Shown in pieces: positions 36,758 to 62,892 of a stretch of DNA of 64,000 nucleotides. This DNA is from an uncultured Acidobacteriaceae bacterium (GTDB lineage Bacteria; Acidobacteriota; Terriglobia; Terriglobales; Acidobacteriaceae). The notes under the pieces were generated by a model that saw only the letters and a program-made list of their open reading frames with translations, ran no database searches and was not told the origin of the DNA. The DNA is taken from the NCBI GenBank assembly GCA_963715875.1, contig OY970281.1, forward strand, positions 1,135,946-1,199,945, given 5' to 3'. How positions within the stretch are numbered: the first letter of the stretch is position 1; each line of letters starts with the position of its first letter. A program made the translations under genes and the position numbers.

Positions 36758-36973
36758 ATGCTAAAAAATCAAACCCCGCCCCACTTCTCCACCTACGATC
36801 AAAATCTTGTCCTCACGACCCTCGAACACGACCAACTCGTCAGAGCCAAAAAACACCCGATCCCCCGCCGCCACCTCAAAGGAGCCGAACTCGCAATCCT
36901 CTGGTCCCTCCGCATCTACCTGCTATTCATGATGACGGTAGTAGCCTACCAAGCCTGGATCGCCGCCCACTAA
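36758..36973 (+). CDS. Small hypothetical membrane protein
   Basis: Third-position C bias resembles that of neighbouring genes, and there is a C-terminal TM segment (LAILWSLRIYLLFMMTVVAYQAWIAA). The caveat is that its last ~25 nt are shared with a repeat copy at about 39915-39945. Confidence 0.35.
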   Translation: MLKNQTPPHFSTYDQNLVLTTLEHDQLVRAKKHPIPRRHLKGAELAILWSLRIYLLFMMTVVAYQAWIAAH

Positions 36974-36974
36974 C

Positions 36975-37024
36975 TTGTGAGCCCCTCTGTGAACCCCTGT
37001 GCCCCCTGTGGTAAAGATTTTGAC
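36975..37024 (+). repeat. Family D repeat, copy 5
   Basis: TTGTGAGCCCCTCTGTGAACCCCTGTGCCCCCTGTGGTAAAGATTTTGAC. Confidence 0.75.
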
Positions 37025-37043: not shown

Positions 37044-38270
37044 CTAATTCAGATTCAAGCTGAAAATCACCCCCGCGTGGTGGGAACCGCCGTACGAGGC
37101 AGTCCCTTTCAGCGTCGTGTCCGAACTCTGCACGATGCCCGCGGGCACATAACCATCCGAAGCATCGAAATCGTGCAGCGATTCGAAACTACCCGAGGTA
37201 CTTACGGAAAAAACCGTGCCGCATCCCGCGCCATTTCCGCACTCCCCACCGAAAAACGTGATCCCGTACAAAGCGCCGTTGCTGCCTTGAATCAGATCAT
37301 ACGGAGCATAGCCCGAGGTATTTCCCTTGGCCCCAGAGAAGCTGTGCAGCGGAGTCACCACGCCGCTGGCCGTGAGTTGAAAAACCGTTCCGCCGCCAGT
37401 CGCCTCAGAACCACCAAGACTCGTCGTGCCATAGAAGTTGCCGTCCGATCCCTGAATCAACCACGCGGGCGAGCCGCCATCGGCGCAATCGGACAGACTG
37501 CAGAAACTGTAGACGACGCTGAATTGTCCTTGCGGAGTGATCTTGAAAACCGTGCCGCAGCCCCCGGGAGAGCAGAGATAGTAATATTGCCCTCCAGTCG
37601 TGGTAATGCCGTAAACGCTGCCATCGGCGGCGCGGATCAGAGGTTGAGGTTCGCCCGTGTTGCTGTAGGCATCAATGCAACCCGGTTGCGAGTCGCAGAA
37701 GTTATAGAGCGTCGTCAGCTTTCCGTTCGCGGCAAGGTGAAAGGCGCCGCCGAACTGGTGCGAGCCTGCTTCCAGAGTTGTGCCAAAAAAACCGCCCGCG
37801 CCGTCTTCCACCAGGCTGTTCGCATACCATCCTTCGGCGCAAAGGCAAAAACTGTGCAGCACCGTGAGTTTGCCGCTCAGGGTCAGCCGGTACACCTCGC
37901 CCAGGTCATTGGCTCCGCCGTTGGACGTCGTTCCGTACAGATTTCCGTCCGAGCCGAGGATCGGGCCGAACTCCGGAAGCGAACCGTCGGTGCACTTCGT
38001 CTGCGAACAAAAAGTGTAGAGCGCGGTGAGTTTCCCTGCCGGCGTGAGCTTGTAGATCAGCCCCTGCGAATTGGCGCCGCCCTGTAATGTAGCGCCGTAC
38101 AGATTGCCATCTTTCGCCAGGACCGGCGGCGTGAGCGGACGATTCCCGTTGCTGTTATCGAAGTTCTGCAACACTGCAAAGCTTTGTGCCGACACTGCCA
38201 GCGGCAACATGACCACGATGATCAAAGCCAGCAAGGCAAAGGTAGAGAAAGCACTTGAGATAGAACGCAT
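37044..38270 (-). CDS. GloVer-repeat (TIGR03803-like) secreted beta-propeller protein, paralogue 1. It has a distinct signal peptide and no IPT tail.
   Basis: Units such as DGNLYGTT..GG....G.V(F/Y)KLT..GK.T.L(Y/H)SFC recur. An AAGGAG RBS precedes ATG 38270. Confidence 0.8.
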   Translation of the reverse strand: MRSISSAFSTFALLALIIVVMLPLAVSAQSFAVLQNFDNSNGNRPLTPPVLAKDGNLYGATLQGGANSQGLIYKLTPAGKLTALYTFCSQTKCTDGSLPEFGPILGSDGNLYGTTSNGGANDLGEVYRLTLSGKLTVLHSFCLCAEGWYANSLVEDGAGGFFGTTLEAGSHQFGGAFHLAANGKLTTLYNFCDSQPGCIDAYSNTGEPQPLIRAADGSVYGITTTGGQYYYLCSPGGCGTVFKITPQGQFSVVYSFCSLSDCADGGSPAWLIQGSDGNFYGTTSLGGSEATGGGTVFQLTASGVVTPLHSFSGAKGNTSGYAPYDLIQGSNGALYGITFFGGECGNGAGCGTVFSVSTSGSFESLHDFDASDGYVPAGIVQSSDTTLKGTASYGGSHHAGVIFSLNLN

Positions 38271-38335
38271 GGCACACTCCTTGGCTGAGGCCAAAACAAG
38301 TTTGTTTGCGATCTGGAATCGCCTTCGTTAAGCTC

Positions 38336-39805
38336 CTACTTCGTCACCACAAACTGCGGATTACTATTCAGCGTTCCCGACGGAGTCACCACCGACACCA
38401 CCCCCGTCGTCGCTCCTGCTGGAACCGTCGCTTTGATATAGCTATCGGTTTCCACCGTGAAGGCGGCCTTCATGCCGTTGAACTCAACACTGCTTGACCC
38501 GGTCAAGTGATTGCCGAGAATAATGACGTGGGTCCCGACGATCCCGCGTACCGGTACCGTTTCTACCAGCGGGCTCAAATTGTTCGACACCGCGAAGATG
38601 GTGCCGTATTCACCCTCGCCCTGCGGCGCGCATCCATACAGCGTGCTGCCGTAGAGTTGTCCGTTCGTGGCTTGAAAAAGCGGGCTCCACGAGTCATAGC
38701 CTGGGCCACCGTAACTGCCGGCAACGCAATTGCCGAATGCATAAAGCTGCGTGGCTTTTCCCTCGGGCGTGACCTCCAGGATGCTTCCCGCGTTGTACAG
38801 CAATCCCGGCGTGGTCATATAAAGATTTCCATCGCTGGCCAGCGTCAATCCTTCGAAGGCATAGGCTTGTCTGAAGGTGAAATTCTGCAGCACGCTATAC
38901 ACATTTTCCGGAGTGATCTTAAAAACTGTCCCGTAGCCCTTGCTGCCACCACCCGAGGTTGTGCCATAAAAATTCCCGCCAGCGTCCTGCACGATCGTGG
39001 TCGGTCCCGTACCGGTAGGGCAGTTCCCGTTACGGATGTAACAGAAGTTCACCAGCGTCTGGTAAGTGCCCGAGGTTGGCAGTTCGTAAACGACGCCGCC
39101 TCCCCCCGCCGTACCTCCGGAAACCGCCACCCCGTACAGGTTTCCATCCATGCCTTCGATCGGGGGGAAAATCGGATACTCTCCATCTGTGCAATTCGCC
39201 TGCGAGCAAAAAGAGTACAGCGTCTTAAATTGGCCGGTTGCACTGATCTCGAAGATCGTCCCGACATTGGCATTCCCGCCGTTGTGGGTCGTGCCGTAAA
39301 GATTCCCATCGCTGCCCTGGATGATTCCGTTCGGGGACTGGCCATCCACACATGGCGTCGTGGGACAGAAGCTATACAAGGTCGTGAGCTCGCCGCGCAG
39401 CGTCATCTTGTAAACCGTTCCTGAGCCGTTTGTGGCGCCGGCATCGTTGCCACCGGAGTACGTCACTCCATACAGGTTTCCGTCGCTGCCGAGTACCGGC
39501 GACGCGGCGGGATACTCCCCGTCAGCGCAGTTAGCCAGCGAACAGAAACTGTAAAAATTGCTGGTCTTCCCTCCTGGAGTCAATTCGTAAACATTGCCCT
39601 TTCCATAGGCACCGCCGGCATTGGTCGTGCCGTAGTAGCGCCCGTTCGTCGCCTGAATGATCGTTTGTCCTTGCGGCAAATGTCCGTTCTCGCCATTGAA
39701 GTTCACGACGTTCGTGACGGTCTGTGCCTGGACGCCCACCGCCAGGCTGAAGGTGAAGGCCGCGATCGTAAGGCCGAGAACGGTCTGAAACTTGAAACTC
39801 TTCAT
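38336..39805 (-). CDS. GloVer-repeat beta-propeller protein with C-terminal IPT/TIG domain, paralogue 2
   Basis: The leader is MKSFKFQTVLGLTIAAFTFSLAVGVQAQ, followed by GloVer units with FC...C.DG Cys pairs. The tail is SSSVEFNGMKAAFTVETDSYIKATVPAGATTGVVSVVTPSGTLNSNPQFVVTK. Confidence 0.9.
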   Translation of the reverse strand: MKSFKFQTVLGLTIAAFTFSLAVGVQAQTVTNVVNFNGENGHLPQGQTIIQATNGRYYGTTNAGGAYGKGNVYELTPGGKTSNFYSFCSLANCADGEYPAASPVLGSDGNLYGVTYSGGNDAGATNGSGTVYKMTLRGELTTLYSFCPTTPCVDGQSPNGIIQGSDGNLYGTTHNGGNANVGTIFEISATGQFKTLYSFCSQANCTDGEYPIFPPIEGMDGNLYGVAVSGGTAGGGGVVYELPTSGTYQTLVNFCYIRNGNCPTGTGPTTIVQDAGGNFYGTTSGGGSKGYGTVFKITPENVYSVLQNFTFRQAYAFEGLTLASDGNLYMTTPGLLYNAGSILEVTPEGKATQLYAFGNCVAGSYGGPGYDSWSPLFQATNGQLYGSTLYGCAPQGEGEYGTIFAVSNNLSPLVETVPVRGIVGTHVIILGNHLTGSSSVEFNGMKAAFTVETDSYIKATVPAGATTGVVSVVTPSGTLNSNPQFVVTK

Positions 39806-39842
39806 CGAAATATCCCCCCGTTCCCACGAATGAATTCGGGAA

Positions 39843-39864
39843 GGGCACGACGTTTAGTCGTGCC
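39843..39864. repeat. Family F hairpin, copy 2
   Basis: GGGCACGACGTTTAGTCGTGCC, preceded by TTCGGGAA as in copy 3. Confidence 0.6.
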
Positions 39865-39914
39865 ATCCGTCGCAATTAAAGACACGGGCTTTAGCCACTG
39901 GAGGATACCGGTCG

Positions 39915-40046
39915 GCCGTTCAAGTCTGGATTGCCGCCCACTAACATCTGAGTCCCTCTGTGAGCCTCTGTGTCCCCTGTGTTAAAGATTTTGACTTTGA
40001 CTCTGTGAGCCTCTGTGTCCCCGTGTTAAAGACTTTGACTTTGGTT
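39915..40046 (+). repeat. Family D repeats, copy 6 (two tandem units)
   Basis: ...GCCGCCCACTAACATCTGAGTCCCTCTGTGAGCCTCTGTGTCCCCTGTGTTAAAGATTTTGACTTTGACTCTGTGAGCCTCTGTGTCCCCGTGTTAAAGACTTTGACTTTGG. Confidence 0.75.
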
Positions 40047-40071
40047 TGAATGAAACGCTACTGCGTAACCA

Positions 40072-41580
40072 CTATTTGCTCACCACAAACTGCGGATTCC
40101 CATTCAACGTCCCCGACGGAGTCACCACAGACACCACTCCCGTCGCCGCGCCCCTGGGCACCGTCGCCGTGATGTAGGTATCGGACTTCACCTTGAACGC
40201 CGCCTCCACGCCGTTGAACGTGACGCTGCTCGTTCCTGTCAGACCGTTCCCCAGAATGATCACGCTCTGCCCCACTTTGCCCGCCACGGGCGATGTTTCC
40301 ACCAGCGGGCTCAAGCCGTTCGTAACCGAATAAATCGTGCCATAGCCCCCACAGCCACCAGAGACGGTGCCGTCACCGCCATAAACGGTCATTCCGTAGA
40401 GAATGCCATTGGTGCCTTGAAAAAGCGTGCTCACCGGGTTGTAGCCCGTGGAACCACACTCGCTAAACGTGTAAAGCAGCGTCGCCACGCCCGCAGGAGA
40501 AATCTCCACGAGAATTCCTCCATTCGCGCCGAATTCGTTGCCTGTCGTCGTCGCATAGAGATTGCCATCATTGGCGATCATCAATCCTCCGACGGCCTGT
40601 CCTTGAGTGATGTTGAAACTCTGCACGACACTGAATTGGTTTGCCGGTGTGATCTCGAACACCACCCCATATCCCGCGTTGTCGCCGGTCTCGCTGCTGC
40701 CTCCAAATTCGGTTGTGCCAAAAATATTTCCATGGACATCCTGCACGATGTTGGTCGGAACCGACCCATCCGGACATGAGCCGCTCGAATAATTGCAAAA
40801 GTTGTGGAGCACCGTATAGGTTCCCGAAGCTGTCAGCTCATAAACCACTCCCGCCCCCATCGCGCCGCCGGAAGCAGTCCCGTAAAAGTTTCCGTCGATG
40901 CCCTGCAGCGGCGGGAACAGTGGACGTTCGCCATCGATGCAATTCGCCCGCGAACAGAAAGAGTACAGCTCGGTGAACTTGCCCTCCGGAGTGACCTTGA
41001 AGATCACACCTTCCTTAAACCTTCCCCCAATGGTTGTCGTTCCGTAAAAACTTCCGTCGCTCGCCTGGATGAGACCAGTCGGCCCCTGGCCGTCAATGCA
41101 GGGAGTAGAAGGACAAAAGGTATGGAGCGTCGTCAGCTTGCCCCCCAGCGTCAGCTTGTAGATGGTTCCTGAACCTGGATCGTCGTCGCCCTTGTAGTCG
41201 CCGGCATTGCTGCCACCGGCCAGCGTAACTCCATAGAGGTTTCCATCCCGTCCCAGCACAGGAGCCCAGATGGCGTTGGCCCCGTCCGTACACGCGCCCT
41301 TCACTGGCTTGGCGCAAAAGCTGTAAAGATTGCTCAGTTCTCCGCCGGATGTCACTTCGAAAATATTCCCTTGCCGATAAAATCCACCGGCGTCGGTTCC
41401 CCCATAAAAGCGTCCGTTCGTCGCCTGAATCAACGATCCAAAAGGTGCATCTCCCGTTTCGCGATTGAAGTTGGCAAGATTGGTGACAGTCTGTGCCTGC
41501 GCACACACTGCCAGGCCGAAGGTAAGCACCGCACATGCCAGTGCGCGTGCAACAGTGAGTAATGATTTGGAGTTCTTCAT
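40072..41580 (-). CDS. GloVer-repeat beta-propeller protein with IPT/TIG tail, paralogue 3
   Basis: The leader is MKNSKSLLTVARALACAVLTFGLAVCAQAQ (ATG 41580). The tail is ...VTFNGVEAAFKVKSDTYITATVPRGAATGVVSVVTPSGTLNGNPQFVVSK. Confidence 0.9.
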   Translation of the reverse strand: MKNSKSLLTVARALACAVLTFGLAVCAQAQTVTNLANFNRETGDAPFGSLIQATNGRFYGGTDAGGFYRQGNIFEVTSGGELSNLYSFCAKPVKGACTDGANAIWAPVLGRDGNLYGVTLAGGSNAGDYKGDDDPGSGTIYKLTLGGKLTTLHTFCPSTPCIDGQGPTGLIQASDGSFYGTTTIGGRFKEGVIFKVTPEGKFTELYSFCSRANCIDGERPLFPPLQGIDGNFYGTASGGAMGAGVVYELTASGTYTVLHNFCNYSSGSCPDGSVPTNIVQDVHGNIFGTTEFGGSSETGDNAGYGVVFEITPANQFSVVQSFNITQGQAVGGLMIANDGNLYATTTGNEFGANGGILVEISPAGVATLLYTFSECGSTGYNPVSTLFQGTNGILYGMTVYGGDGTVSGGCGGYGTIYSVTNGLSPLVETSPVAGKVGQSVIILGNGLTGTSSVTFNGVEAAFKVKSDTYITATVPRGAATGVVSVVTPSGTLNGNPQFVVSK

Positions 41581-41644
41581 CGAATTATCCCCCATGGATG
41601 CCCTGGCAGACTGCAGAAAACCCCGGTTCGAAGCGGTTCGGGAA

Positions 41645-41688
41645 GGGCACGAGTTCCAGCCTGCCCTGAGCGAAGCCGAAGGGTGCCG
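41645..41688. repeat. Family F hairpin, copy 3, split by the nested GCCTGCCCTGAG module
   Basis: TTCGGGAAGGGCACGAGTTCC[AGCCTGCCCTGAGCGAAGCCGAAGG]GTGCC. Confidence 0.55.
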
Positions 41689-41812
41689 CTAAGTCGCTGA
41701 AAATTGGATCGCGCTTCAGCGCCTGAGGTACGCTCCTTGCTGCTCCCCCGAGTTTTTCCGCAGCCTGCTAAAAAGGCACAGCACAAATTTTTGAAATCAG
41801 TGAAAACTCGAA

Positions 41813-43246
41813 CTACTTCGTCACCGCAAACTGCGGATAGCTATTCAACGTCCCCGACGGTGTGACCACAGACACCACCCCCGTCGTCGCCCCCGCCGGA
41901 ACCGTCGCCTTGATGTAGGTGTCCGACTCGATCGTGAATGCCGCTTCCACGCCGTTGAACGTCACGCTCGTCGATCGGTTCAAGCCATTGCCCAGAATCA
42001 GCACGCTCTGCCCAGTCGCTCCGGCTACAGGCACGGTCTCCACCAGCGGGCCAAGCCCGTACGAAAACTTGAAGACTTCGCCATCGTAGGTGCCCGGGCC
42101 GTAAGGTGTGACTCCATAAAAATTGCCATCCGTGCCCTGGAAAAGCGGCCCAACCGGTGGTGCGCCAATGCTCTTGTCCTCCGGCTTGAAGGTATAGATC
42201 CTCGAGTAAGCACCCTCCGGAGTCACCTTATAAATCGATCCGCTCGCCTCGGTGTCATAGCCAAACACTCCGTAGACATTGCCGTCGCTGCCGAGCATCA
42301 CTCCTTCATAGGGCCAGTCGTTGTAGTCGTCGAAATTGTGCAGCACCTGCAATTGATTGCCCGACGTGATCTCGAACACGCTGCCGTACGGACTGCCGCT
42401 TGCGCTGTACTCGGCTGTGCCAAAGAAGTTGCCATTGGCATCCCGCACCACGTCGTAGGGCTCTCCAGGAGCGGAACAGCCTTCGACGTAATAGCAGAAG
42501 TTGTAGAGCACCGAATATTTTCCTGCGGGAGTCAGTTCATATAAGACTCCGCCGCCCAGGCTTCCGCCGCCCGCAGTTACGCCATAAAAATTGCCGTCTG
42601 TCCCCAGGATGGGCGTGTTGGGGCCTGCGCCATCCGGGCAATTCGGACCCGCCGAGCAAAATGTGTGCACCACCTTCAACACCCCGGCCGGGGTGATGGA
42701 GAAAATGATTCCTCCGTTACTGGCATTGCCGCCCCCCGCGGCGCCGTAGAAATTCCCGTCCGCGCCAAGAACGATTGCGCCCGGCCCGGCGCCGCCCGTA
42801 CAAGGATGTGTGGGGCAGAACGAATACAGCACGCTGTATCTGCCGCTGAGACTCCATTTGTAAACCACCCCTTGATTTAGAATCCCGCCTCCCGCGGTTC
42901 CATAAAGGTTTCCATCGGTTCCCACCACCGGAGGCGTAGCCGGACTCGATCCGTCGGTACATCTCGGCTTCGAGCAAAAATTGTAGAGATCAGTGAGCTT
43001 TCCCGAAGGCGTCACGCGAAACAGCGTGCCGGACTGAGTGATTGGACTGCCGCCCGAGTCCGTCACGCCATAAATATTTCCATCGATCCCCTGGACGACC
43101 GATGAGAACGGTCCATATCCGTTATTCCCGTCGAAGCGTGCGATCGTGTGCAGGATTTGCCCCTGCGCGCGCACCGCCAGGCTGAGCGTGAAGGCCGCAC
43201 ACGCTAATGCAAAGCCAAGAGTGAGTAGAGATTTGGAACCCTTCAT
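41813..43246 (-). CDS. GloVer-repeat beta-propeller protein with IPT/TIG tail, paralogue 4
   Basis: The leader is MKGSKSLLTLGFALACAAFTLSLAVRAQGQ. The tail is ...VTFNGVEAAFTIESDTYIKATVPAGATTGVVSVVTPSGTLNSYPQFAVTK. Confidence 0.9.
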   Translation of the reverse strand: MKGSKSLLTLGFALACAAFTLSLAVRAQGQILHTIARFDGNNGYGPFSSVVQGIDGNIYGVTDSGGSPITQSGTLFRVTPSGKLTDLYNFCSKPRCTDGSSPATPPVVGTDGNLYGTAGGGILNQGVVYKWSLSGRYSVLYSFCPTHPCTGGAGPGAIVLGADGNFYGAAGGGNASNGGIIFSITPAGVLKVVHTFCSAGPNCPDGAGPNTPILGTDGNFYGVTAGGGSLGGGVLYELTPAGKYSVLYNFCYYVEGCSAPGEPYDVVRDANGNFFGTAEYSASGSPYGSVFEITSGNQLQVLHNFDDYNDWPYEGVMLGSDGNVYGVFGYDTEASGSIYKVTPEGAYSRIYTFKPEDKSIGAPPVGPLFQGTDGNFYGVTPYGPGTYDGEVFKFSYGLGPLVETVPVAGATGQSVLILGNGLNRSTSVTFNGVEAAFTIESDTYIKATVPAGATTGVVSVVTPSGTLNSYPQFAVTK

Positions 43247-43296
43247 CGGAACGTCCTCCTAAAGTGCGCCGCCAATGCAAAACAATCTCCGAACCT

Positions 43297-44745
43297 CTAC
43301 TTCGCCACCACAAACTGCGGATTACTATTCAGCGTCCCCGACGGCGTCACCACAGACACCACGCCGGTCTTCGCGCCCACCGGCACCGTCGCCGTGATGT
43401 AGGTATCGGATTCAACCGTAAAAGCCGCCGCCACGCCGTTGAACGTGACGCTGCTCGCTCCCGTCAGCCCGCTGCCCAAAACAATCACGCGCGCGCCCAC
43501 CGCCGCCGCACCCGGAACGGTTTTCACCAGCGGGCTCAGATTATTGGAAAAGCTGTACACAACTCCATCGCCGTGCGAGCCCCCGTCCGCCGTCGCGCCG
43601 TAGAAAATTCCGTCGGTGCCTTGCAGCAATCCGTAAGCCGCGTCGTAGGCGCTGCAGGTGGACGCGTTGCAGAAGCTATAGAGAGAAGTGTAGGTGCCCT
43701 CCGCCGTGATCTGGTAGATGTTGCCGTGGCCTTCGTCGCCACCGTTGGCCGTCGTTCCATACAGGTTGCCGTCATTGGCCAGAGTGGGTGCGGATTGGGG
43801 AAATCCTCCGTCGGTGTCGCCGTCAACGTTGAAGCTGTGCAGCACGATGTATTGGTCGGACGGGGTAATCTCGAAGACGGTGCCGTCCCCGTAAGCTCCG
43901 CCATACACGGTCGTGCCATAAAGATTGCCGTTTGCGTCCTGCACCAGCGTTGCGTCGGGATAGTTGCCGTCAGCGCAGTTTGGTTGAGAACAGAAGTTGT
44001 AGAGCGCTTTGTAGAGTCCCGCTGGCGTAATTTCATAGACCACGCCGCCGCTATGAAATCCTCCCCGAGAAGCCGTGCCGTAGAAGTTGCCGTTGCTGGC
44101 CTGCATCGGGCTGGCTTGTGGATTGGAACCGGTGCTGCAGCCAAGCTGGGCACAAAAGCTGTGCAGCGCCCTGAACTCGCCGAGCGAGGTGAGCTCGAAG
44201 AAAGTGCCATCGCCATATGCCCCGCCGTCCTCTGTCACTCCGTAGAAATTTCCGTTACTGCCCTCGATGATTCCCACCGGACTGATGCCGTCGGAACATG
44301 GCTCTGTCGGACAGAAGCTGTAGATGGTGGTCAATTTGCCACCAAGAGTCATTTTGTAGACCGTGCCGGCACCGCTGCTGTTGCCGCCGTTGACAGTGGT
44401 GCCATAGAAGTTTCCGTCGCTGCCCAGGATGGGAGCCGCTATCGGACGTATCCCATCGGCACAATTGGCGAGAGCGCAAAAGCTGTACAGATTGGTCAAT
44501 TTCCCGGCCGGCGTCAACTGGAAAATATCCCCGAAGCCGTACTTGCCCCCATAGAATGCAGCCCCGTAGTAGTGGCCGTTGGTGTCCTGCACCAGGCTTC
44601 CAAAGAAGGGAGCTTCGCCGTTGAATCCAGTGAAAGCACCCAGTGTGGTGAACGTTTGTGCCTGGGCGCGCACTGCCTGGCTGAGGGAGAAGGCCGCGCA
44701 TGTGAGTGCAAGGCCGAAAGTGAGCAAAAATTTGGAACGCTTCAT
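43297..44745 (-). CDS. GloVer-repeat beta-propeller protein with IPT/TIG tail, paralogue 5
   Basis: The leader is MKRSKFLLTFGLALTCAAFSLSQAVRAQAQ. The tail is ...VTFNGVAAAFTVESDTYITATVPVGAKTGVVSVVTPSGTLNSNPQFVVAK. Confidence 0.9.
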   Translation of the reverse strand: MKRSKFLLTFGLALTCAAFSLSQAVRAQAQTFTTLGAFTGFNGEAPFFGSLVQDTNGHYYGAAFYGGKYGFGDIFQLTPAGKLTNLYSFCALANCADGIRPIAAPILGSDGNFYGTTVNGGNSSGAGTVYKMTLGGKLTTIYSFCPTEPCSDGISPVGIIEGSNGNFYGVTEDGGAYGDGTFFELTSLGEFRALHSFCAQLGCSTGSNPQASPMQASNGNFYGTASRGGFHSGGVVYEITPAGLYKALYNFCSQPNCADGNYPDATLVQDANGNLYGTTVYGGAYGDGTVFEITPSDQYIVLHSFNVDGDTDGGFPQSAPTLANDGNLYGTTANGGDEGHGNIYQITAEGTYTSLYSFCNASTCSAYDAAYGLLQGTDGIFYGATADGGSHGDGVVYSFSNNLSPLVKTVPGAAAVGARVIVLGSGLTGASSVTFNGVAAAFTVESDTYITATVPVGAKTGVVSVVTPSGTLNSNPQFVVAK

Positions 44746-44800
44746 CGAAATGTTCTCCTGATTTCTTCCGCCGTTACGGAATGAAAATGAGTCGCCACAA

Positions 44801-46222
44801 CTACTTCGTCACCACAAACTGCGGATTACTATTCAGCGTTCCCGACGGCGTAACCACAGAAACCACGCCGGTCTTCGCTCCCGCCGGCACCGTCGCTTTG
44901 ATGTACGTATCAGACTCGACCGTGAACGCCGCTTCCACGCCGTTGAACGTGACGCTGCTCGCTCCCGTCAGCCCGTTGCCGAGGATGAAAACAGTTTTTC
45001 CGACTTTGCCCGCCCCCGGTGCCGCTTGTACCGACTGCCCCAGCCCATTCGAGAATTCGAAGACCGTACCCAACGGGTCGTACCCAGGGTTGCTCGGAGT
45101 AGTTCCATATAAATTGCCGTTGGTCCCTTGCATCAGCGGTCCAGCCGGCTCGTCCCCATAAGGAGGCGCGAAGGCATAGAGCGTCTTGAATCCTCCCGAC
45201 GCACCAATCTCAAAAATAGTTCCGGCATTGGAGGGACCGCCTTCTGCCGTGATTCCATAAAAATGGCCATCGCTGGCCAACGTCAATTTTTCGTCAGGAT
45301 AGGCTCCATCGGTCTTGTTGAAGGTGTGCAGGTTGATGAATTTTTGTTGCGCTGTGAGTTCAAAGACGGTTCCGTAGCCGCCACTGTCGCCACCATACTG
45401 GGTTGTGCCAAAGAAATTCCCATTGGCATCCTGCACCATCGCCACCGGCCCCGAGCCCGCGGTACAGGTGACTATCCCCCTGCAGAAGCTGTAGAGCACC
45501 TTAAATCTTCCCGCCAGCGTGAATCTGTACAAGACGCCGCCTGTGGGGGATTGCCACGTCGCGCCATACAGGTTTCCGTCGTTGCCCACGATCGGCGAAG
45601 AGACCGGACTAAAGCCATCTGCGCAATTCGCCAGCGAACAAAAACTGTAGAGCGATGTGAACTGGCCCGCCGGCGTGATCCTGAAAATCGTGCCCGCGTG
45701 GAAATTCCCTCCCCCGAAGGTTGTGCCGTAAAAGTTCCCGTCGCCGGCCTGGATGAGGCCGTTTGGAGCTAATCCGTCGGCGCAGTCCGCCAGCGAGCAG
45801 AACGTATAGAGGGTCGTAAGTTCGCCGCTCAGCGTCATCTTGTATACCGTTCCGTATCCCAAGGTGATTCCCGTGGTCGTACCGTAAAGGTTGCCGTCAC
45901 TTGCGAGTACGGGAGCCGACTCGGGAGCTGTGCCGTCGGCGCAATTAGACCGCAGGCAAAAATCGTAAACTGAGGTGATCTCTCCGCTGGGCGTAATACG
46001 GTAGACATTTCCCCCCCCATGTCCGCCGCCATTGGTGGTCGTGCCGTAAAAGTTCCCGTCCGTCGCCTGGGTTAACGAACCAAACGGCTGGTAGCCATTC
46101 GTTCCATCGAAGCTGGCAAGGTAGGAGAAGGTCTGTGCCTCGGCGCGCACCGCCAGGCTGAAGGTGAGAGCCGCACATGCGAGCGCAAGGCCAAGAGTGG
46201 TGAGAGATTTTGAGCGTTTCAT
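44801..46222 (-). CDS. GloVer-repeat beta-propeller protein with IPT/TIG tail, paralogue 6
   Basis: The leader is MKRSKSLTTLGLALACAALTFSLAVRAEAQ. The tail is ...VTFNGVEAAFTVESDTYIKATVPAGAKTGVVSVVTPSGTLNSNPQFVVTK. Confidence 0.9.
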   Translation of the reverse strand: MKRSKSLTTLGLALACAALTFSLAVRAEAQTFSYLASFDGTNGYQPFGSLTQATDGNFYGTTTNGGGHGGGNVYRITPSGEITSVYDFCLRSNCADGTAPESAPVLASDGNLYGTTTGITLGYGTVYKMTLSGELTTLYTFCSLADCADGLAPNGLIQAGDGNFYGTTFGGGNFHAGTIFRITPAGQFTSLYSFCSLANCADGFSPVSSPIVGNDGNLYGATWQSPTGGVLYRFTLAGRFKVLYSFCRGIVTCTAGSGPVAMVQDANGNFFGTTQYGGDSGGYGTVFELTAQQKFINLHTFNKTDGAYPDEKLTLASDGHFYGITAEGGPSNAGTIFEIGASGGFKTLYAFAPPYGDEPAGPLMQGTNGNLYGTTPSNPGYDPLGTVFEFSNGLGQSVQAAPGAGKVGKTVFILGNGLTGASSVTFNGVEAAFTVESDTYIKATVPAGAKTGVVSVVTPSGTLNSNPQFVVTK

Positions 46223-46263
46223 GATTCCCCCCAGTTTCGCGAAATCCTATCCAACCCCGATTG

Positions 46264-47692
46264 CTACTTCCCCACCACAAACTGCGGATTGCTCTTCAAC
46301 GTTCCCGACGGAGTTACCACAGACACCACGCCGGTCTTCGCACCCGCCGGAACCGTCGCCTTGATGTAGGTATCGGATTCCACCGTGAACGCCGCCGGCA
46401 CGCCGTTGAAACGTGACGCTGCTCGATCCCGTCAGGCCGTTGCCCAGAATATTCACACTGGTTCCCGCCGTGCCTCTCAGCGGCACAGTTCGCACCAGCG
46501 GCCCGAGGTTATTATTGAACCTGTATTCGGCGCCGTTCGAATTGATCACGTAGTATTCGAGCCCACCGTAGAAATTTCCGTCAGGAGCCTGATACAGCCC
46601 GGTATAGGGAACCGTGCCCCCGCCATAAGTGAAATTGTGCAGCGTCGTATACGCGCCCGCCGGAGTGATCTGATAAATCGTTCCGTAACCGTTGATCCCC
46701 TCCGTTGTCCCATACAAATTCCCGTCACTGCCCAGCGTCAACGTGTTCGGAGCCGTGCCCGCTCCGTACGTGAAACTGTGCAGCAGCTTGAATTGTTGCT
46801 TCGACGTGATCTCGAATGCCGTGCCCTCGCCCGCGCTTCCTCCGAAGTACGTCGTCCCAAAAAGATTTCCAGCCGCATCCTGCACCACTCCCCTCGGGTC
46901 ATACCCTCTGGGACACGGGCCGTTCGAACAAAAGAAGGTGTGCACCACGTTGAACGTTCCCGCAGGACTCAGCGAATACACCACGCCGCCTCCGTGCGTT
47001 CCTCCTCCGCCTGTGGTGCCAATCAAACTTCCGTCGAGGCCCTGGATCGGCGGGGAACTTGGTCCGTTGCCATCCGCACAATTGGCCAGAGAACAAAAGT
47101 TGTGCACCACCGAAAACTCGCCCGCCGGAGTGATCTTGAAAAGATTGCCCGCGCCGAACGCACCGCCCAGGATCGTGGTTCCATAAAAGTTGCCATCGCT
47201 GGCCTGCATGAGCCCAGCCGGGTTGCCGCCGTCGATGACGCAACTGGAAACACAGAACGTGTAGAGAGTGGTCAACTGCCCGTCCAGCGTCAACTTGTAA
47301 ACCGTTCCCCAGCCCGCTCCATTATTCAAATCGGAGCCCCCGCCCCACGTCACGCCGTAGAGATTTCCATCCGTGCCCAGGATGGGAGGTGTCTCCGGAA
47401 GTTGTCCATCGGGACAGTGCGGTTGTGAGCAGAAGGTGTAGATCGAGCTGATCTCTCCGCTGGGCGTAATTCTCACCACGTTCCCAACCGAGCCGTCACC
47501 CTCGCCCGCGCCGGCCGTTGTGGTATAAAAATTTCCGTCCGTCGCCTGGATCACCGCACTCGGTGCGGCCCCGTCGATACCGTTGAAGATCGCGAGATAG
47601 GACAAGCTCTGTCCATGCGCGCCCACCGCCAGACTAAAAGTGATGGCCGCGCACGCCAGCGCAAAGCCCAAGCTGATTCTTGAATTTTTCAT
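46264..47692 (-). pseudogene. GloVer-repeat paralogue 7, frameshifted in its IPT/TIG tail
   Basis: The leader is MKNSRISLGFALACAAITFSLAVGAHGQ (ATG 47692). The track frame reads ...SSVTFQRRAGGVHGG... to a stop at 46247. Removing one base of the AAA run at 46409-46411 restores FNGVPAAFTVESDTYIKATVPAGAKTGVVSVVTPSGTLKSNPQFVVGK plus a TAG at 46264-46266. Paralogues read GTTGAACGTGAC where this copy reads GTTGAAACGTGAC. Confidence 0.7.
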
Positions 47693-47768
47693 TGCCCCCC
47701 CAAGATTCCCCAGAAGAAATAGAAATAAACTAATTTGAAGTCCCCAAAACTGCGCTTGCCCCGAATTC

Positions 47769-47978
47769 CCCACAACTGAGGCTGCCCCACCCTTGCCGCG
47801 TTCCCATAGCCAGGCGCGCCCGCACCCAGCATTCGCGGCAAGTGCCTGCCCTGAGCGGAGCCGAAGGGGTGGGTTTCCACAAAATGCCGACAGCTCGTCA
47901 CCACAACCGAGGCTGCCCCATCCTTGCCGCGTTCCCATAGCCAGGCGCGCCCGCACCCAGCATTCGCGGCAAGGGTGG
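47769..47978 (+). repeat. Family H: two tandem ~75-nt units with 132-bp period; unit 1 carries a nested module
   Basis: CCACAAC(T/C)GAGGCTGCCCCA(C/T)CCTTGCCGCGTTCCCATAGCCAGGCGCGCCCGCACCCAGCATTCGCGGCAAG occurs at 47769 and 47901. In unit 2 the arm CCTTGCCGCG pairs with CGCGGCAAGG. In unit 1 TGCCTGCCCTGAGCGGAGCCGAAGG is inserted after CGGCAAG. Confidence 0.8.
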
Positions 47979-48018
47979 GATACTACGAACGTCGAAAGCT
48001 CATCACCACCGCGATCCC

Positions 48019-49215
48019 CTACGGCCCAAAAACATAAGCCACGCCATTGCCCGGCGCTCCGGCCGCCATCACTGAACCGCTTATCGCAACCGGGGATCCC
48101 CATTCCCCCCCGCTCACAGTCGCGTCTGAAGTTGCCAGCATACTTTTCCAGCCAGTTGCTGGCTCGTTGTAGACGTAAGCGGTGCCGTTCGTAGGAGTAG
48201 TCACCGAGGCGACGGCGATCTTCGTCGGCGCAACCGCAACTCCGAACCCAAAGTAATCGCCGACAGCCAGACCGGATGCCGACAGTTCCCCCGTCTGCGT
48301 CATATTCTTCCAGCCCGATGCCGGTTCCACGAAAACGTACGCGAGGCCGGTGTCGTTGTTTCTCTTTGGCGCGCCGGCCACGATGGTATTTCCGTTGATC
48401 GCCACCGCCACGCCCAAGCCATCCTGCGCTCTGCCGTCGGAAGCTGTCAGTTTCGCCTTTTGACTGTGCGATCCACCCCAACCCGCTGCCGGTTTGGTAA
48501 ACACGTAGACCGCGCCCAGATTGTCGTTGTTATACGCACCCGCGACAATCGTCGATCCGCTCACAGACAGGGACGCGCCAAAATAGTCGTAGTCCGTCGT
48601 ATCGCTCGCAATAATGCTTCCCGTCGGAAGGGAACTCACCCATCCTCCGGCCGGCTCCGTAAATATCTGCACCCGTCCACGGTAGGTGTAAGTTTTTGGC
48701 TCGCTCACCGCAATGGTCGTTCCGTCAATCGCCACAGTCTCGCCAAACAGCGTTGCTACTCCGTTGGTGTTGCTGAGCACCGCCGTCTCCGTCGCGTTCT
48801 GCCATCCGCCCGCCGGCTCGGTAAAAACATAGGCGGCATTGTTGCCGTAAGATCCCACGACAATGGTGTTGCCGCTGATGCCTACAGAAAGCCCGAAATC
48901 GAGGAACGTAAAGCCGTCGGAGGGAGTGAGTTCGGCCGTCTCTGTCATGTTTGCCCAGCCGCTCGCGGGCTTCACATAAACGTACACAGCGCCGAAATTG
49001 CCGTGCGCCTCCGGGGCGCCTACCACAATGGTGTTCCCGCTCATCGCGATGGCCACGCCAAAGCCGTCTGGATATCCATCGTTGTCCGACTCTGAGAGTT
49101 GGGCCAGCTGATTCAGACTGCTGGGGCCTTTCTTCTGTGCCTGAGCGCGCGCCGCCAGGCTAAAGGTGAAAGCGCACGCCAGCGCCAGGCCAAGACTGAA
49201 TTTCAAACTCTTCAT
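48019..49215 (-). CDS. FG-GAP-repeat (integrin-alpha-like) seven-bladed beta-propeller, secreted
   Basis: Seven units of the type FG.SVAISGNTIVVGAP....GAVYVF..PA.GW are present. The leader MKSLKFSLGLALACAFTFSLAARAQAQ is homologous to the GloVer leaders. A GGAGGA RBS precedes ATG 49215. Confidence 0.85.
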   Translation of the reverse strand: MKSLKFSLGLALACAFTFSLAARAQAQKKGPSSLNQLAQLSESDNDGYPDGFGVAIAMSGNTIVVGAPEAHGNFGAVYVYVKPASGWANMTETAELTPSDGFTFLDFGLSVGISGNTIVVGSYGNNAAYVFTEPAGGWQNATETAVLSNTNGVATLFGETVAIDGTTIAVSEPKTYTYRGRVQIFTEPAGGWVSSLPTGSIIASDTTDYDYFGASLSVSGSTIVAGAYNNDNLGAVYVFTKPAAGWGGSHSQKAKLTASDGRAQDGLGVAVAINGNTIVAGAPKRNNDTGLAYVFVEPASGWKNMTQTGELSASGLAVGDYFGFGVAVAPTKIAVASVTTPTNGTAYVYNEPATGWKSMLATSDATVSGGEWGSPVAISGSVMAAGAPGNGVAYVFGP

Positions 49216-49450
49216 AGAAATATCCTCCACAAACGCCCCTCAAAAGGGGGCATCGGTCAATGGGAAAGGCCGCGGAATCCGTGCAGATTCCCGTGTGCGA
49301 ACGCACACAGATTGGGGGGAGGGGCGATGCTTTGCTCCAAACCATAGCACAAATAACCCCCCTAAAACAGCCAGATTCGCGGCGAAAAGCCCGTTTTGCA
49401 AGAAGTTCAGCACTGTGCAAATTCCTTCATCTTTTACAGTCAGTTCCGCA

Positions 49451-49525
49451 GTTGTCATCCCGAAACGCGGCGTACTTCAGCCGCGTGAGGAGCCTGCCCT
49501 GAGGCGAATGCCGAAGGGATCTCCC
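49451..49525 (+). repeat. Family A-like repeat, copy 9 (with nested module)
   Basis: GTTGTCATCCCGAAACGCGGCGTACTTCAGCCGCGTGAGG[AGCCTGCCCTGAGGCGAATGCCGAAGG]GATCTCCC. Confidence 0.55.
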
Positions 49526-49573: not shown

Positions 49574-49978
49574 TCAAGCCCGTCCAGCCGCCCCCGAATG
49601 CACCAGATGCAAACCCCGAAACCTCACCCTAGCCGACCGCCGCTGCAGTCGGATGGCCTCTGCCTGGGGCAACAGCCTCACCAACTCGGCATCGATCCGG
49701 CATAGCGACCGAATCCTCAGTTCCCGCGAAAACGCCAGCGAAGGGTTGATGGCCAGCCGCGGCGCCTTCTGCTCGGGCCTGTGCCACAGCGCCACCAACG
49801 CCACCAGCGCCTCCGGGCCCAGCGACTTCACTTTCGAGAAATCCAGAACCACATTGACCTCGGGGAACTTTGTGTTGATCTCGGCCCACAGCGCATTCAC
49901 ATCTTCTTTACTCGTCATCGGGCCCTGGCAAAACACCACGGCGGGGTCCGCCACATTGAGCAAACTTGTGCGTTCCAT
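49574..49978 (-). CDS. STAS-like domain protein (possible anti-sigma-factor antagonist)
   Basis: VVFCQGPMTSKEDVNALWAEIN...VNVVLDFSKVKSLGPEALVALVAL fits the STAS pattern only loosely. Confidence 0.4.
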   Translation of the reverse strand: MERTSLLNVADPAVVFCQGPMTSKEDVNALWAEINTKFPEVNVVLDFSKVKSLGPEALVALVALWHRPEQKAPRLAINPSLAFSRELRIRSLCRIDAELVRLLPQAEAIRLQRRSARVRFRGLHLVHSGAAGRA

Positions 49979-50283
49979 GGATACACCTCCTGGGATGATC
50001 CTGTTTCCGACGCTCTCTGCGCCGATTTCATGTATTTTTCAGCGTGTGAGGCCAGGCTTTACGAACCAGGCGGGGGAATCTCGCCAAAGAACTTTGCGCC
50101 AACTCCCTCCAACCCACAAGCGACTGGATGCGCCTGTCGCACAATGTCGCCTTATGTCGCACTTCCTCCCCGGCCCCACCCCCTTCGCTGTGGTTTGAAA
50201 CCGCGCCGAAAACCGTTTACACTCGCTTGGCGGCGTGCGCGGGGGCGGTACACACTCACTGGCGGAGCCCTGCACGATGTCCA

Positions 50284-51975
50284 ATGACCACGGGGGATCA
50301 CAAGACGAAATCCATAGTCGAGCCCTTCAGCCTCGCTGATCGTCTCGACTATTGGCAGGAGATCGCAAAATATCTCGGCCGCGAGGTGCGTACCGTCCAG
50401 CGCTGGGAGCGAGACAAATCCCTGCCCGTTCGCCGCCTCACCGGCAACGGCGAAGACAATCAGCCCAGAGTTTTCGCCTACAGATCAGAAATCGATGCCT
50501 GGGTCGCCCTTCATTCCGCCCACGGCGCACTTCCGTCCCTCGGCCTCGCCGAACTCAGAGATAGAGATAAAGATAAAGATAAAGAACCGTCCGTCCTCCG
50601 CATCGCCGTTTTGCCGCTCGAGAACAGCGGAGGCAATCCCGACACCGAATTCCTCAGCGACGGCGTCAGCGACAGCCTCATTACCCGCCTCTCCCAGTTA
50701 TCGATTCTCCGCGTCATCTCCCGCACCTCTGCCTTCCGCTACAAGGAACAAGCCATCGATCCCGGCGCAGTCGGAAGGGAACTGGAAGTCGACGCCGTCC
50801 TCGCTGGCCGCATGGTCACTCGCGGCAACGCTCTTTCCATCAGCCTCGAACTCATTGACGTCCGCGACAACAGCATCATGTGGGCCGGCCGCTATAACCG
50901 CGGCATCAACGATCTCGTCACCGTCGAGGACGAGATCTCCCAGAGCGTTGCCGAGAAACTTGAAGTCAAGCTCACCGGAGGCGCTCATACCCTCCTGCCC
51001 AAACGCACCCACCAGAACCCCGAGGCCTACCAGCTTTATTTGAAGGGCCGCTACTACTGGAACAAGCGCACCGGCGACGCCGTCAAGAAAGGACTCGACT
51101 ACTTCAACCAGGCCATCGAGCTCGATCCCGTCTACGGCCTCGCCTACGCCGGAATCGCCGACTCCTACGCGATGATGGTTTTCAATATCACCATTTCACC
51201 GCGCGATGGTCTGCTCAAAGCGCGCGCAGCAGCCACCAGGGCTTTGGAACTCGATGAGCGTCTGGCCGAAGCTCGCTCCTCCGTCGCCTTCGTCAAAATG
51301 TTTTATGACTGGGACTGGGCTGGCGCGGAACTCGAATTTCATCGCACCTTCGATCTCAATCCCAACTACTCCATCGCCCGCCAGTGGTACGCCATGGAAT
51401 TAGCCGCTCTCGGTCGCCACGAGGAAGCCGTGCGCGAAACCGAGCGCGGCCTGCGCATCGATCCTCTCTCCTTGTCCATCAACGCCACCTCCGGCCTGCT
51501 CTTCTACTTCGTCCGCCAGTACGACGAAGCTCTGGAGCAGGGCCTCGCCACCGTCAACATGGACCCCAATTTCTTTGCCTCGCATTTCGTAGCAGCCCTC
51601 GCCCTCGAACAGAAAGGCCAACTCGAGAAAGCCATCCCAGAGTTCAAGGCGAGTGTCGATCTTTCCGGCCGATGGCCGCTGTTCCTGGCTGCTTACGGAC
51701 ATGCCTGCGCTGTCGCCGGCGACCAGGAAGAAGCCATGAAGGTAGTCGCCGAACTGCGCGACACCTCTGTGCGCAAGTACGTGTCATCTTTCGCCGTAGC
51801 CGCCGTCTACGCCGGCTCCGGCGAAAAAGATCTCACCCTCGACTGGCTCGAGAAAGCCTACGAAGAGCGCGGAACCTGGATGATCTTCCTCAACGTCCAC
51901 CCCTACTTCGATTTCCTCCGCACCGAACCCCGCTTCCAAAATCTCCTAACCAGAATGGGCCTCCCCGCCCGCTAA
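50284..51975 (+). CDS. Regulator with N-terminal excisionase/MerR-like HTH, central TolB-N/CsgG-like module and C-terminal TPR repeats
   Basis: YWQEIAKYLGREVRTVQRWERDKSLPVRR is the HTH. RIAVLPLENSGGNPDTEFLSDGVSDSLITRLSQ is the central module. TPR-like NPEAYQLYLKGRYYW... runs through the C-terminus. The start is MTTGD (ATG 50284). Confidence 0.7.
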   Translation: MTTGDHKTKSIVEPFSLADRLDYWQEIAKYLGREVRTVQRWERDKSLPVRRLTGNGEDNQPRVFAYRSEIDAWVALHSAHGALPSLGLAELRDRDKDKDKEPSVLRIAVLPLENSGGNPDTEFLSDGVSDSLITRLSQLSILRVISRTSAFRYKEQAIDPGAVGRELEVDAVLAGRMVTRGNALSISLELIDVRDNSIMWAGRYNRGINDLVTVEDEISQSVAEKLEVKLTGGAHTLLPKRTHQNPEAYQLYLKGRYYWNKRTGDAVKKGLDYFNQAIELDPVYGLAYAGIADSYAMMVFNITISPRDGLLKARAAATRALELDERLAEARSSVAFVKMFYDWDWAGAELEFHRTFDLNPNYSIARQWYAMELAALGRHEEAVRETERGLRIDPLSLSINATSGLLFYFVRQYDEALEQGLATVNMDPNFFASHFVAALALEQKGQLEKAIPEFKASVDLSGRWPLFLAAYGHACAVAGDQEEAMKVVAELRDTSVRKYVSSFAVAAVYAGSGEKDLTLDWLEKAYEERGTWMIFLNVHPYFDFLRTEPRFQNLLTRMGLPAR

Positions 51976-52002: not shown

Positions 52003-52123
52003 GATTTTCAACCCGAGGTGTGCCCAGTCCCAGCCGCGAAGCGGCGAAAGAATGCAGCCCACCGCGTAAGCGGTGGGTCGGCCCAGCCGACAACGGAACC
52101 AGAGCCCCGAAGGGGCGAAAGAC
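52003..52123 (+). repeat. Family B repeat, copy 3 (with 5' extension GGGATTTTCAACCCGAGGTGTGCCCAGTCCC)
   Basis: The extension is shared with copy 4. The core runs 52032-52123. Confidence 0.8.
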
Positions 52124-55458: not shown

Positions 55459-55580
55459 TGGGATTTTCAACCTGAGGTGTGCCCAGTCCCAGCCGCAAAG
55501 CGGCGAAAGAATGCAGCCCACCGCGCAAGCGGTGGGTCACGAAAGGAAAACCAAGCAGAGCCCCAGCGGGGCGAAAGAGC
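55459..55580 (+). repeat. Family B repeat, copy 4 (with 5' extension)
   Basis: GGGATTTTCAACCTGAGGTGTGCCCAGTCCCAGCCGCAAAGCGGCGAAAGAATGCAGCCCACCGCGCAAGCGGTGGGTCACGAAAGGAAAACCAAGCAGAGCCCCAGCGGGGCGAAAGAGC. Confidence 0.85.
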
Positions 55581-58800: not shown

Positions 58801-58890
58801 AGCCGCGAAGCGGCGCAAGAATGCAGCCCACCGCGCAAGCGGTGGGTCACGAAAGGAAAATTAAGCAGAGCCCCAGCGGGGCGAAAGACC
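58801..58890 (+). repeat. Family B repeat, copy 5
   Basis: It is almost identical to copy 4 across the core. The trailing CGCTAACGGTGAC(T/C)ACCAT is shared with copy 6. Confidence 0.85.
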
Positions 58891-62622: not shown

Positions 62623-62892
62623 GACAGTCTCCTTTACGCCTGTTCGATGGGCTTGGAGGAAGGGCCTTTCCGGAAGCAATTGCGGGACGGCTACGGGGGA
62701 CGGCAAGTCGTGTGCTTCCCTACAGCCCGATGTAACCCAGGAATCAGAGCGTTCTGCCTCAGGGCAGGGTCGCGTTCCATGGCAGGAAAGTGCTCTTACG
62801 AGGAGGCGCCTCAATATAGTCCAAAAGCGCGAAGAAGTCGGTGACCTGAGTCACCTAACGACGTGGGGGCTGGCCCACCTTTGCCGTAACAG

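Follow-up and report, generated by a model that had tools for sequence, protein, structure and literature searches.

How does a row of neighbouring genes come to differ through most of its length while the gene ends stay nearly the same? The question is posed by a gene array of an uncultured Acidobacteriaceae bacterium (contig OY970281.1, assembly GCA_963715875.1), located in a stretch of 64,000 nucleotides (nt) that we analysed as a whole and call the window. The listing of open reading frames (ORFs) of the window gives eight consecutive ORFs on the minus strand at 37044-49230, head to tail: seven genes for GloVer (TIGR03803) beta-propeller proteins, G1-G7, and one FG-GAP gene, G8. G8 heads the array and a tail-less GloVer gene, G1, closes it. 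G2-G7 end in a C-terminal IPT/TIG domain, a beta-sandwich of ~80 amino acids (aa) called the tail below, and have in common with G8 a leader of about 30 aa. We think it likely that the array is a tandem set of old paralogous genes for exported beta-propeller proteins, whose tails have been exchanged among the copies and are constrained.

The family assignments made in a preliminary description of this DNA agree with searches by hidden Markov model (HMM). With NCBIfam TIGR03803 (curated cut-off 44 bits, whole protein) G1-G7 score 247-328 bits (E 1e-75 to 1e-100), with 6-8 matched stretches each. G8 scores 185.5 bits with Pfam FG-GAP_2 (PF14312; cut-off 23; E 1.6e-55; 5 stretches).

Divergence among G2-G7 was followed along a codon alignment, with pS the proportion of synonymous differences per synonymous site. 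The leader is 63% identical in aa and 71% in nt (pS 0.53), the propeller body 47% and 57% (pS 0.67), the first 28 TIG codons 61% and 63% (pS 0.61) and the last 52 TIG codons 86% and 84% (pS 0.36). Divergence is thus not uniform, and the gene ends are more alike than the bodies, as the preliminary description held. Its further statement that the tail is nearly invariant in paralogues 2-7 needs the correction that the G7 tail is out of frame in the window. A repeat search finds a terminal tail block in each of the six genes (Table 1), and by eye the similarity of G2-G7 stops at the stop codon. Of two oligomers quoted earlier, a 16-mer has five copies and a 22-mer three in the window, against none expected.

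Part of this pattern is constraint. G2-G7 each have orthologues elsewhere with 65-89% aa identity in the body, while the paralogues are 45-55% identical to one another. Orthologue bodies have a synonymous divergence (dS) of 0.30-0.69 and a ratio of nonsynonymous to synonymous divergence (dN/dS) of 0.17-0.32; for the last 52 codons, in the per-domain comparison that had been proposed, dN/dS is 0.05-0.12. These values indicate that the paralogues are older than the split of the sampled relatives, that their bodies are under purifying selection, and that the last ~49-52 TIG codons are under very strong purifying selection. Together with the orthologue identities, the body dN/dS makes the repertoire look old and conserved rather than fast-diversifying. 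The earlier suggestion that the propeller faces diversify is therefore not borne out by these figures, which are gene averages and not values per site.

Constraint on the protein does not account for the tail at synonymous sites. Related loci are numbered here L001 onwards. We compared orthologues with paralogues and used quartets in preference to a run-length test, to which a low local substitution rate would give false positives. Several orthologue pairs with body nt identity of 0.85-0.89 (third position 0.77-0.81) fall to 0.69-0.78 in the last 52 codons (third position 0.40-0.46). In these same pairs the tail dS is 1.4-2.5 against a body dS of ~0.35, a 4-7-fold difference. Across 88 genes, identity over the last 52 codons is 0.797 between same-genome paralogues, 0.809 between orthologues and 0.767 between non-orthologues of other genomes.

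Each of 29 quartets consisted of two orthologue pairs from two genomes, and its informative sites were sorted into those supporting orthology, grouping by genome, and the third topology, which serves as a control. In the body the counts are 8840/88/59, in the first 28 TIG codons 366/20/4 and in the last 52 TIG codons 203/89/45. Individual tail quartets give 2/14/0 (window G3 and G5 versus L004), 2/8/0 (G6 and G5 versus L004), 1/7/2 (G6 and G5 versus L002) and 9/2/1 (G2 and G6 versus L006). The tails of G3, G5, G6 and G7 are one another's nearest neighbours. The comparisons indicate that gene conversion or unequal recombination has time and again replaced the last ~50 codons with those of other array members, with the result that tails group by genome while bodies group by orthologue. 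In the window lineage the exchange appears to have touched G3, G5, G6 and G7, where it is strongest, with G2 and G4 not clearly involved. That part of a tandem gene family may evolve in concert is well known. The signature of this process, paralogues of one genome that are more alike than orthologues of different genomes over a bounded tract, synonymous sites included, is what the alignments show here, with the effect confined to the last ~52 codons. A constraint at the RNA level was also considered for the low synonymous divergence of the tails, and was rejected because synonymous sites differ freely between orthologues.

A reading without any exchange, in which old paralogues just happen to be under the strongest constraint in tail and leader, has in its favour the very low dN/dS of the tail, the conservation of the tail protein throughout the clade, distant genomes included, the orthology signal kept in many quartets, and a leader that shows no same-genome excess. 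It leaves unexplained why orthologues with a body dS of ~0.35 should have such diverged tails at synonymous sites, why synonymous identity is higher among same-genome paralogues than among orthologues, and how the 2/14/0 and 2/8/0 quartets arose; the same holds for ten derived substitutions in 84 nt between two strains that are otherwise 99.8% identical (below). We consider selection alone very unlikely as an account of the locus, and for the tail in the window lineage these comparisons already contradict it.

The two strains are that of the window and that of L001, a 3.09-Mb ENA contig that encodes the exact G6 protein and is 99.8% identical to window positions 34801-56224. Over these 21.4 kb there are 40 differences, 36 of them substitutions, and a stretch of 95 nt in the G7 tail (46315-46409) holds 11 of the 40, an indel among them, where ~0.18 would be expected (P ~1e-16, a rough Poisson estimate). 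The substitutions form a tract of 84 nt (Table 1). At its ten sites the G7 orthologue of L018 (84% body identity) has the L001 allele nine times and the window allele never, so that the G7 tail allele of the window is the derived one; seven of the ten derived states are those of the G5 tail of the window. The indel is an extra T (GTTTCAACGG versus GTTCAACGG, at ~46409-46411), which shifts the reading frame so that the G7 ORF ends in an unrelated peptide at 46247. With the T removed G7 encodes 475 aa, matches TIGR03803 with E 7.5e-82 and scores 29 bits with TIG. In L001 the gene is intact (475 aa). The tract looks like a short gene-conversion tract, although a chimeric consensus of a repeated region could look alike. 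For the frameshift there are two candidates, an indel error of the long reads or an inactivation of very recent date that is tied to the conversion tract.

Several observations count against reading the array as a set of exported proteins with exchanged tails. Orthology still accounts for 60% of the informative tail sites overall, and several genome pairs are without any exchange (e.g. 21/0/0 and 17/1/0); taken together these make conversion episodic and lineage-specific. Because genes recur in several quartets, these are not independent, and the binomial p of 1.8e-4 is indicative only. For the G7 tract the window holds no perfect donor, the best being G5 at seven of ten sites. The indel directly adjoins the variant cluster, and among the loci inspected split GloVer genes occur only in MFD metagenome-assembled genomes (MAGs; L007, L010, L012 and L014). 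The leader was assigned to a class of signal peptide by eye. As to function, literature and PDB searches for GloVer proteins found no paper and no solved structure.

The position of the indel and the company of split genes, like the intact gene of L001, speak for consensus errors of a long-read metagenome assembly, built from reads of paralogous tails, as the source of both the G7 frameshift and the clustered tail differences. The run of T is just three bases long, and the ten substitutions make up a coherent derived haplotype that mostly matches one paralogue, which tells against such an error; the deeper conversion signal, in G3, G5 and G6 relative to orthologues in three other genomes, is independent of the G7 tract in any case. 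For this one tract we rate assembly error as a real possibility, somewhat below an even chance.

The split genes, each a body ORF with a separate tail-only ORF, lie at L007 11793-13281, L010 10296-11733, L012 5047-6127 and 6163-7630, and L014 8782-10231. The PLDC and SPRUCE MAG loci that were inspected have none. We take the MFD loci to be long-read assemblies and the PLDC and SPRUCE loci to be short-read ones. The distribution suggests that the split genes reflect indel errors in a repeated gene family, and such splitting explains the many 70-140-aa 'TIGR03437 family' fragments in protein databases.

How constraint and exchange might act together can be put as follows. Selection on the tail protein would keep nucleotide identity high enough for homologous recombination, through RecA-type exchange or unequal crossing-over. 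Recombination enabled in this way would explain why exchange and conservation peak in one and the same coding segment, and also the variation in gene order and copy number. The proposal that the gene ends are either homogenised by conversion or strongly constrained thus holds in both its parts for the 3' end, which is exchanged and under purifying selection at once; conversion of the leader was not seen.

Conserved 5' and 3' ends around more divergent middles could also mark a cassette system for surface variation, in which silent copies recombine into an expressed copy, or bodies are shuffled, to give a fast-changing ligand-binding or antigenic repertoire. Gene order does differ between related genomes, and a leader-plus-tail gene without a propeller exists (L015 8383-8697, P0037). 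Yet all copies in the array are full-length ORFs, each equipped with a start codon and a ribosome-binding site, the bodies have the one-to-one orthologues and the low dN/dS described above, and the body quartets are 98% orthologous. The two near-identical strains differ in their bodies by scattered single substitutions, the sole cluster being the G7 tail. We find a cassette system barely credible here. As for the L015 ORF itself (104 aa), its leader runs straight into a tail that lacks the first ~16 residues, the whole propeller having been lost; the ORF was probably left behind by recombination.

What, then, is the tail? It lacks a hydrophobic segment and ends in ...NSNPQFVVTK in G2-G7. The Pfam TIG model (PF01833, gathering threshold 20.9 bits) matches G3 (24.4 bits), G4 (25.1), G6 (26.3) and G7 with the T removed (29.0) above threshold; G5, at 20.7 bits, falls just under it and G2 has no match at E<=0.01. 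Because Pfam is weak for G5 and silent for G2, the fold assignment rests on an AlphaFold2 (AF2) model of the tail made separately, with a predicted local distance difference test (pLDDT) score of 90, and on Foldseek. The model retrieves the IPT/TIG domains of Bacteroides SGBP-B, Sec5, CGTase domain D, plexin and EBF, at query-normalised template modelling (TM) scores of 0.6-0.77, and it points to an ordinary IPT/TIG fold. When 1.84 billion representatives were searched with a tail profile, 33,100 cluster representatives matched. Giant multi-TIG proteins with 7-51 copies of the domain lead the list, and the tail shares with them the motif 'V.FNG..A.FTV.S.T.I.ATVP.GATTG.V.V'. Compared with bacterial IPT/TIG domains elsewhere, that of the array is present as a single copy at the extreme C-terminus, with the lineage-specific ending TPSGTLNSNPQFVV[TSAG]K. 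A protein search with the tail only returned short fragments alone (50-140 aa), from which passengers cannot be read.

The taxonomic range of the tail was obtained by scanning 185,579 species-representative genomes with a pattern taken from the tail alignment, which gave 173 confirmed matches, of which 80 were kept. Apart from one Dormibacterota MAG, all 80 are from Acidobacteriota: Ca. Sulfotelmatobacter and Acidobacteriaceae MAGs, Terriglobales, Bryobacterales and one Ca. Acidiferrales. A set of 71 sequences, picked by the tail pattern whatever the passenger, was then scanned in all ORFs with leader, body and tail HMMs from the window. It contains 179 tail ORFs, with the tail C-terminal in 170 and a GloVer body in 158. 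Short remnants or split genes of 50-162 aa make up the other 21, with two exceptions: a 369-aa ORF that matches GloVer weakly, and a 327-aa ORF that does not match GloVer and has its tail inside the protein. Among the 179 we identified no passenger of a different family. Conversely, 155 of 194 GloVer ORFs in this set carry the tail, 110 the leader and 97 both. The longest array, in PLDC01000028 (L011 and L005 cover it), counts at least 15 genes. Arrays of this kind are conserved in the clade. Searching other Acidobacteriota, as had been proposed, thus does recover the tail, almost solely on GloVer bodies or short remnants.

The preliminary description had suggested that the tail is an unrecognised sorting signal. 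In its fuller form this makes the tail a dedicated sorting or anchoring module like the C-terminal domain (CTD) of type IX secretion system (T9SS) cargo or a dockerin, recognised and perhaps cleaved, with concerted evolution keeping the tails matched to a partner. The likeness to T9SS CTD, dockerin and PEP-CTERM modules is real: the tail is a conserved beta-sandwich module of ~80 aa on secreted paralogues, at the extreme C-terminus in 170 of 179 ORFs, and it exceeds its passenger in conservation by far (dN/dS 0.05-0.12) while being homogenised within genomes; NCBI moreover calls GloVer a 'choice-of-anchor' repeat. It differs from these modules in matching none of their HMMs, in its IPT/TIG fold neighbours, in its single passenger family and in having no C-terminal transmembrane segment or sorting motif. 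The tail gave no match to a T9SS, PEP-CTERM or LPXTG model when the E limit was raised to 10, the NCBIfam scan to that limit giving only TIG-like models (LIC10067_lipo, CoaZ_rpt_PGGG and Soli_cterm), all under their cut-offs; for PEP-CTERM and LPXTG anchors the array proteins also lack a C-terminal hydrophobic segment. The best structural matches are ordinary IPT/TIG domains, with no T9SS cargo among the 50 listed, and giant proteins contain the same domain type in 7-51 copies. In the 71 sequences no long tail ORF is without a GloVer match save the 327-aa one, and the FG-GAP and HAF proteins of the same arrays carry the leader and not the tail. Beside the arrays (flanks of ~20 kb) there are regulators only, HTH-TPR (helix-turn-helix and tetratricopeptide repeat) or MarR-like; no conserved candidate partner gene and no candidate secretion or processing machinery was found there. 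A sorting module is, in our estimate, quite unlikely.

The leader has a history of its own. The preliminary description was right that GloVer and FG-GAP genes have it in common: it is present in G2-G7 and in G8 (32 bits with the leader HMM) and, by tblastn and HMM, nowhere else in the window, whereas the leader of G1 is a different one and a tail is missing there, as that description implied. Other secreted proteins of the window have unrelated signal peptides (e.g. ORFs 3975-8954, 23641-25122 and 55905-58472), and neither leader nor tail is generic for secreted proteins there, both being confined to the array. Upstream of the leader, G2-G8 have a common ribosome-binding site and spacer (GGAGG...ATTTCG ATGAAG). 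The leader quartets give 87/54/48, with same-genome grouping not above the control, so that shared ancestry and signal-peptide constraints explain the likeness adequately. By eye, the ~29-aa leader of G2-G7 consists of an n-region MKxSK, ~20 hydrophobic residues and an A-x-A cleavage motif (AQA↓Q), and in the AF2 model residues 5-25 form a low-confidence helix. It reads as a Sec-type (signal peptidase I) signal peptide; the array proteins would accordingly be exported via Sec and cleaved after A-Q-A. A lipoprotein reading of its Cys was rejected: the residue is absent from G2 and from many orthologous leaders, and this lack of conservation in relatives argues against a lipobox.

In related arrays the leader is found on two further kinds of protein. 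FG-GAP proteins carry it in the window, L004, L012 and L020, and so do HAF-repeat proteins of ~345 aa in L003, L007 and L012, a family absent from the window and of marginal assignment (TIGR02913; L007 17779-18816 scores 23.6 bits against a cut-off of 22.65). The remaining matches of the leader HMM in the 71 sequences are three short fragments of 94-104 aa. Since one leader is joined to three unrelated folds, 5' ends must have recombined at least sometimes in the past.

For the propeller bodies an AF2 model of G6 was built from a 79-sequence alignment (pLDDT 92, predicted TM score 0.90). It has an N-terminal helix, seven four-stranded blades and a C-terminal beta-sandwich at residues 398-472. 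The preliminary description gave every GloVer unit a Cys pair. The pair exists (F-C-x3-8-C), in only three to five of the seven blades: four in G2, G3, G4 and G6, five in G5 and three in G1, those of G2-G7 being blades 1-4 or 1-5. The pairs probably form disulfides after export. Foldseek with the full G6 model finds generic propeller neighbours alone (TM 0.4-0.65), and a PDB sequence search gave no match.

Comparison with known systems offers leads to function. G1-G7 are clear members of GloVer TIGR03803, and close homologues in public MAGs already bear that name. The best seven-bladed structural neighbours of the G6 model are the PLL/PHL lectins of Photorhabdus (PDB 5c9o, 5mxe and 8q83), secreted sugar-binding propellers. 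The match has a TM of 0.47-0.65, a root-mean-square deviation of about 5 Å and 12-15% identity, and six-bladed lactonases score equally; the modelled likeness would be a functional lead and not membership. Among the best matches of the tail model are the IPT/TIG domains of Bacteroides 'auxiliary nutrient-binding' proteins (PDB 3tc9, 4hw6 and 3kya), with which no sequence relationship of the array was found. We take these to be surface lipoproteins with an N-terminal IPT domain and a six-bladed NHL-type propeller. The propellers of the array are probably extracellular or periplasmic ligand-binding, perhaps glycan-binding, proteins, and the earlier lectin or adhesin idea is a reasonable conjecture. 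The TIG tail would probably be a common stalk or a contact surface for one common partner. The idea of a partner has a further, more specific form: the homogenised tail might be a docking module that fixes the GloVer repertoire to one partner on the cell surface or in the matrix, conversion keeping the tails in step with changes in that partner, in a cellulosome-like display under the HTH-TPR regulator. This we regard as unlikely, although worth stating.

The features of the array and the gene upstream of it are collected in Table 1.

Table 1. Array genes, tail features and the divergent neighbour, in window coordinates
Feature	Position	Strand	Details
G8: FG-GAP_2 repeat protein, leader present, no TIG tail	48019-49215	-	398 aa from ATG 49215
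G7: GloVer and TIG, frameshifted in the window by one extra T	46264-47692	-	
1-nt insertion site in G7	46409-46411	-	TTT versus TT in five other tails and L001 (alignments)
G7 tail tract, 84 nt	46315-46398	-	10 of 36 substitutions versus L001, all 10 derived in the window
G6: leader, 7-blade GloVer and TIG	44801-46222	-	473 aa; orthologues 76-86%
G5: leader, GloVer and TIG	43297-44745	-	482 aa
G4: leader, GloVer and TIG	41813-43246	-	477 aa
G3: leader, GloVer and TIG	40072-41580	-	502 aa from ATG 41580
G2: leader (most divergent), GloVer and TIG	38336-39805	-	489 aa
G1: GloVer propeller, different signal peptide, no TIG tail	37044-38270	-	408 aa from ATG 38270; TIGR03803 E 8.4e-88
147-nt terminal tail block, G2 copy	38336-38482	-	six copies, 84-90% identity (repeat search)
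147-nt terminal tail block, other copies	40072-40218, 41813-41959, 43297-43443, 44801-44947, 46264-46410	-	
HTH and TPR (CadC/HilA-like) protein, candidate regulator, divergent from the array	50128-51975	+	TPR families; sub-threshold NCBIfam HilA/CadC

The genes at the two ends of the array have orthologues as well, those of G8 with 80-85% identity in L004, L012 and L020 and those of G1 with ~70% in L003, L004 and L005, there too within arrays. The HTH-TPR gene recurs at 75-83% identity in L004, L006, L007, L028, L031 and L034; in the first three of these, the ones whose array maps were inspected for it, it lies directly upstream of the array on the opposite strand. Between it and G8 lies a 134-aa ORF (49574-49978, minus strand) with no family match and weak conservation (49% in L006, 43% in L007). 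A different neighbour, a 201-aa protein that by eye is MarR-like, is encoded at L002 4540-5145 and in 11 further loci (L009, L010, L011, L014, L017, L019, L021, L023, L025, L029 and L032; 72-94% identical). It lies just upstream of the array in the loci mapped (L002, L009, L010, L011, L014 and L032) and is absent from the window. With a MarR-like gene there and HTH-TPR here, there seem to be two or more array loci in the clade, each beside a regulator of its own. A promoter and terminator scan gave fewer matches than in shuffled sequence and says nothing on operon structure.

The spacers of the array contain several repeats. An element of 25-27 nt, CCCTTCGGCT(T/C)CGCTCAGGGCAGGC, has three copies in the window (41659-41683, 47844-47868 and 49492-49518, minus strand), all in the long spacers upstream of G3, G7 and G8; it looks like a repeat of the REP (repetitive extragenic palindromic) or MITE (miniature inverted-repeat transposable element) type. 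In the G8-G7 spacer it is flanked by a 76-nt direct repeat (47767-47842 and 47898-47973, 96% identical), translation through which produces a spurious 744-aa ORF at 46247-48481. A 75-nt repeat is found downstream of G1 (36950-37024) and in the G3-G2 spacer (39921-39995), 88% identical, the latter copy adjoining a tandem duplication of ~43 nt (CAAAGTCAAAGTCTTTAACACGGGGACACAGAGGCTCACAGAG) with copies at ~39990-40070. Outside the array are five copies of Rfam Acido-Lenti-1 (RF01687), at 12677-12722, 52032-52077, 55491-55536, 58801-58846 and 63232-63277 (minus strand), with 49-57 bits against a gathering score of 37. Models of YncE/lactonase-type seven-bladed propellers match two large secreted repeat proteins, at 55905-58472 and 58984-62814 (minus strand), whose signal peptides are unrelated to the array leader; one of them also has Big_3_5 and ASH/Cep192-type Ig domains.

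The array is a well-documented but ordinary kind of feature. What the analysis adds to the GloVer family is the architecture of leader, seven blades and IPT/TIG domain, its tandem arrays, and the exchange of tails in one acidobacterial clade. The locus offers a clean natural example of concerted evolution limited to a segment of the gene. Its repeated tails also carry a warning for long-read MAG assemblies, in which frameshifts or a chimeric consensus may arise at such places. GloVer proteins are abundant in soil and peat Acidobacteriota, a single query having given >8000 candidate homologues, and the constrained and exchanged tail is the likeliest place of a shared interaction, which directs experiments there. 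If the docking reading were true, Acidobacteriota of peat and soil would use the arrays to display ligand-binding propellers in a modular way.

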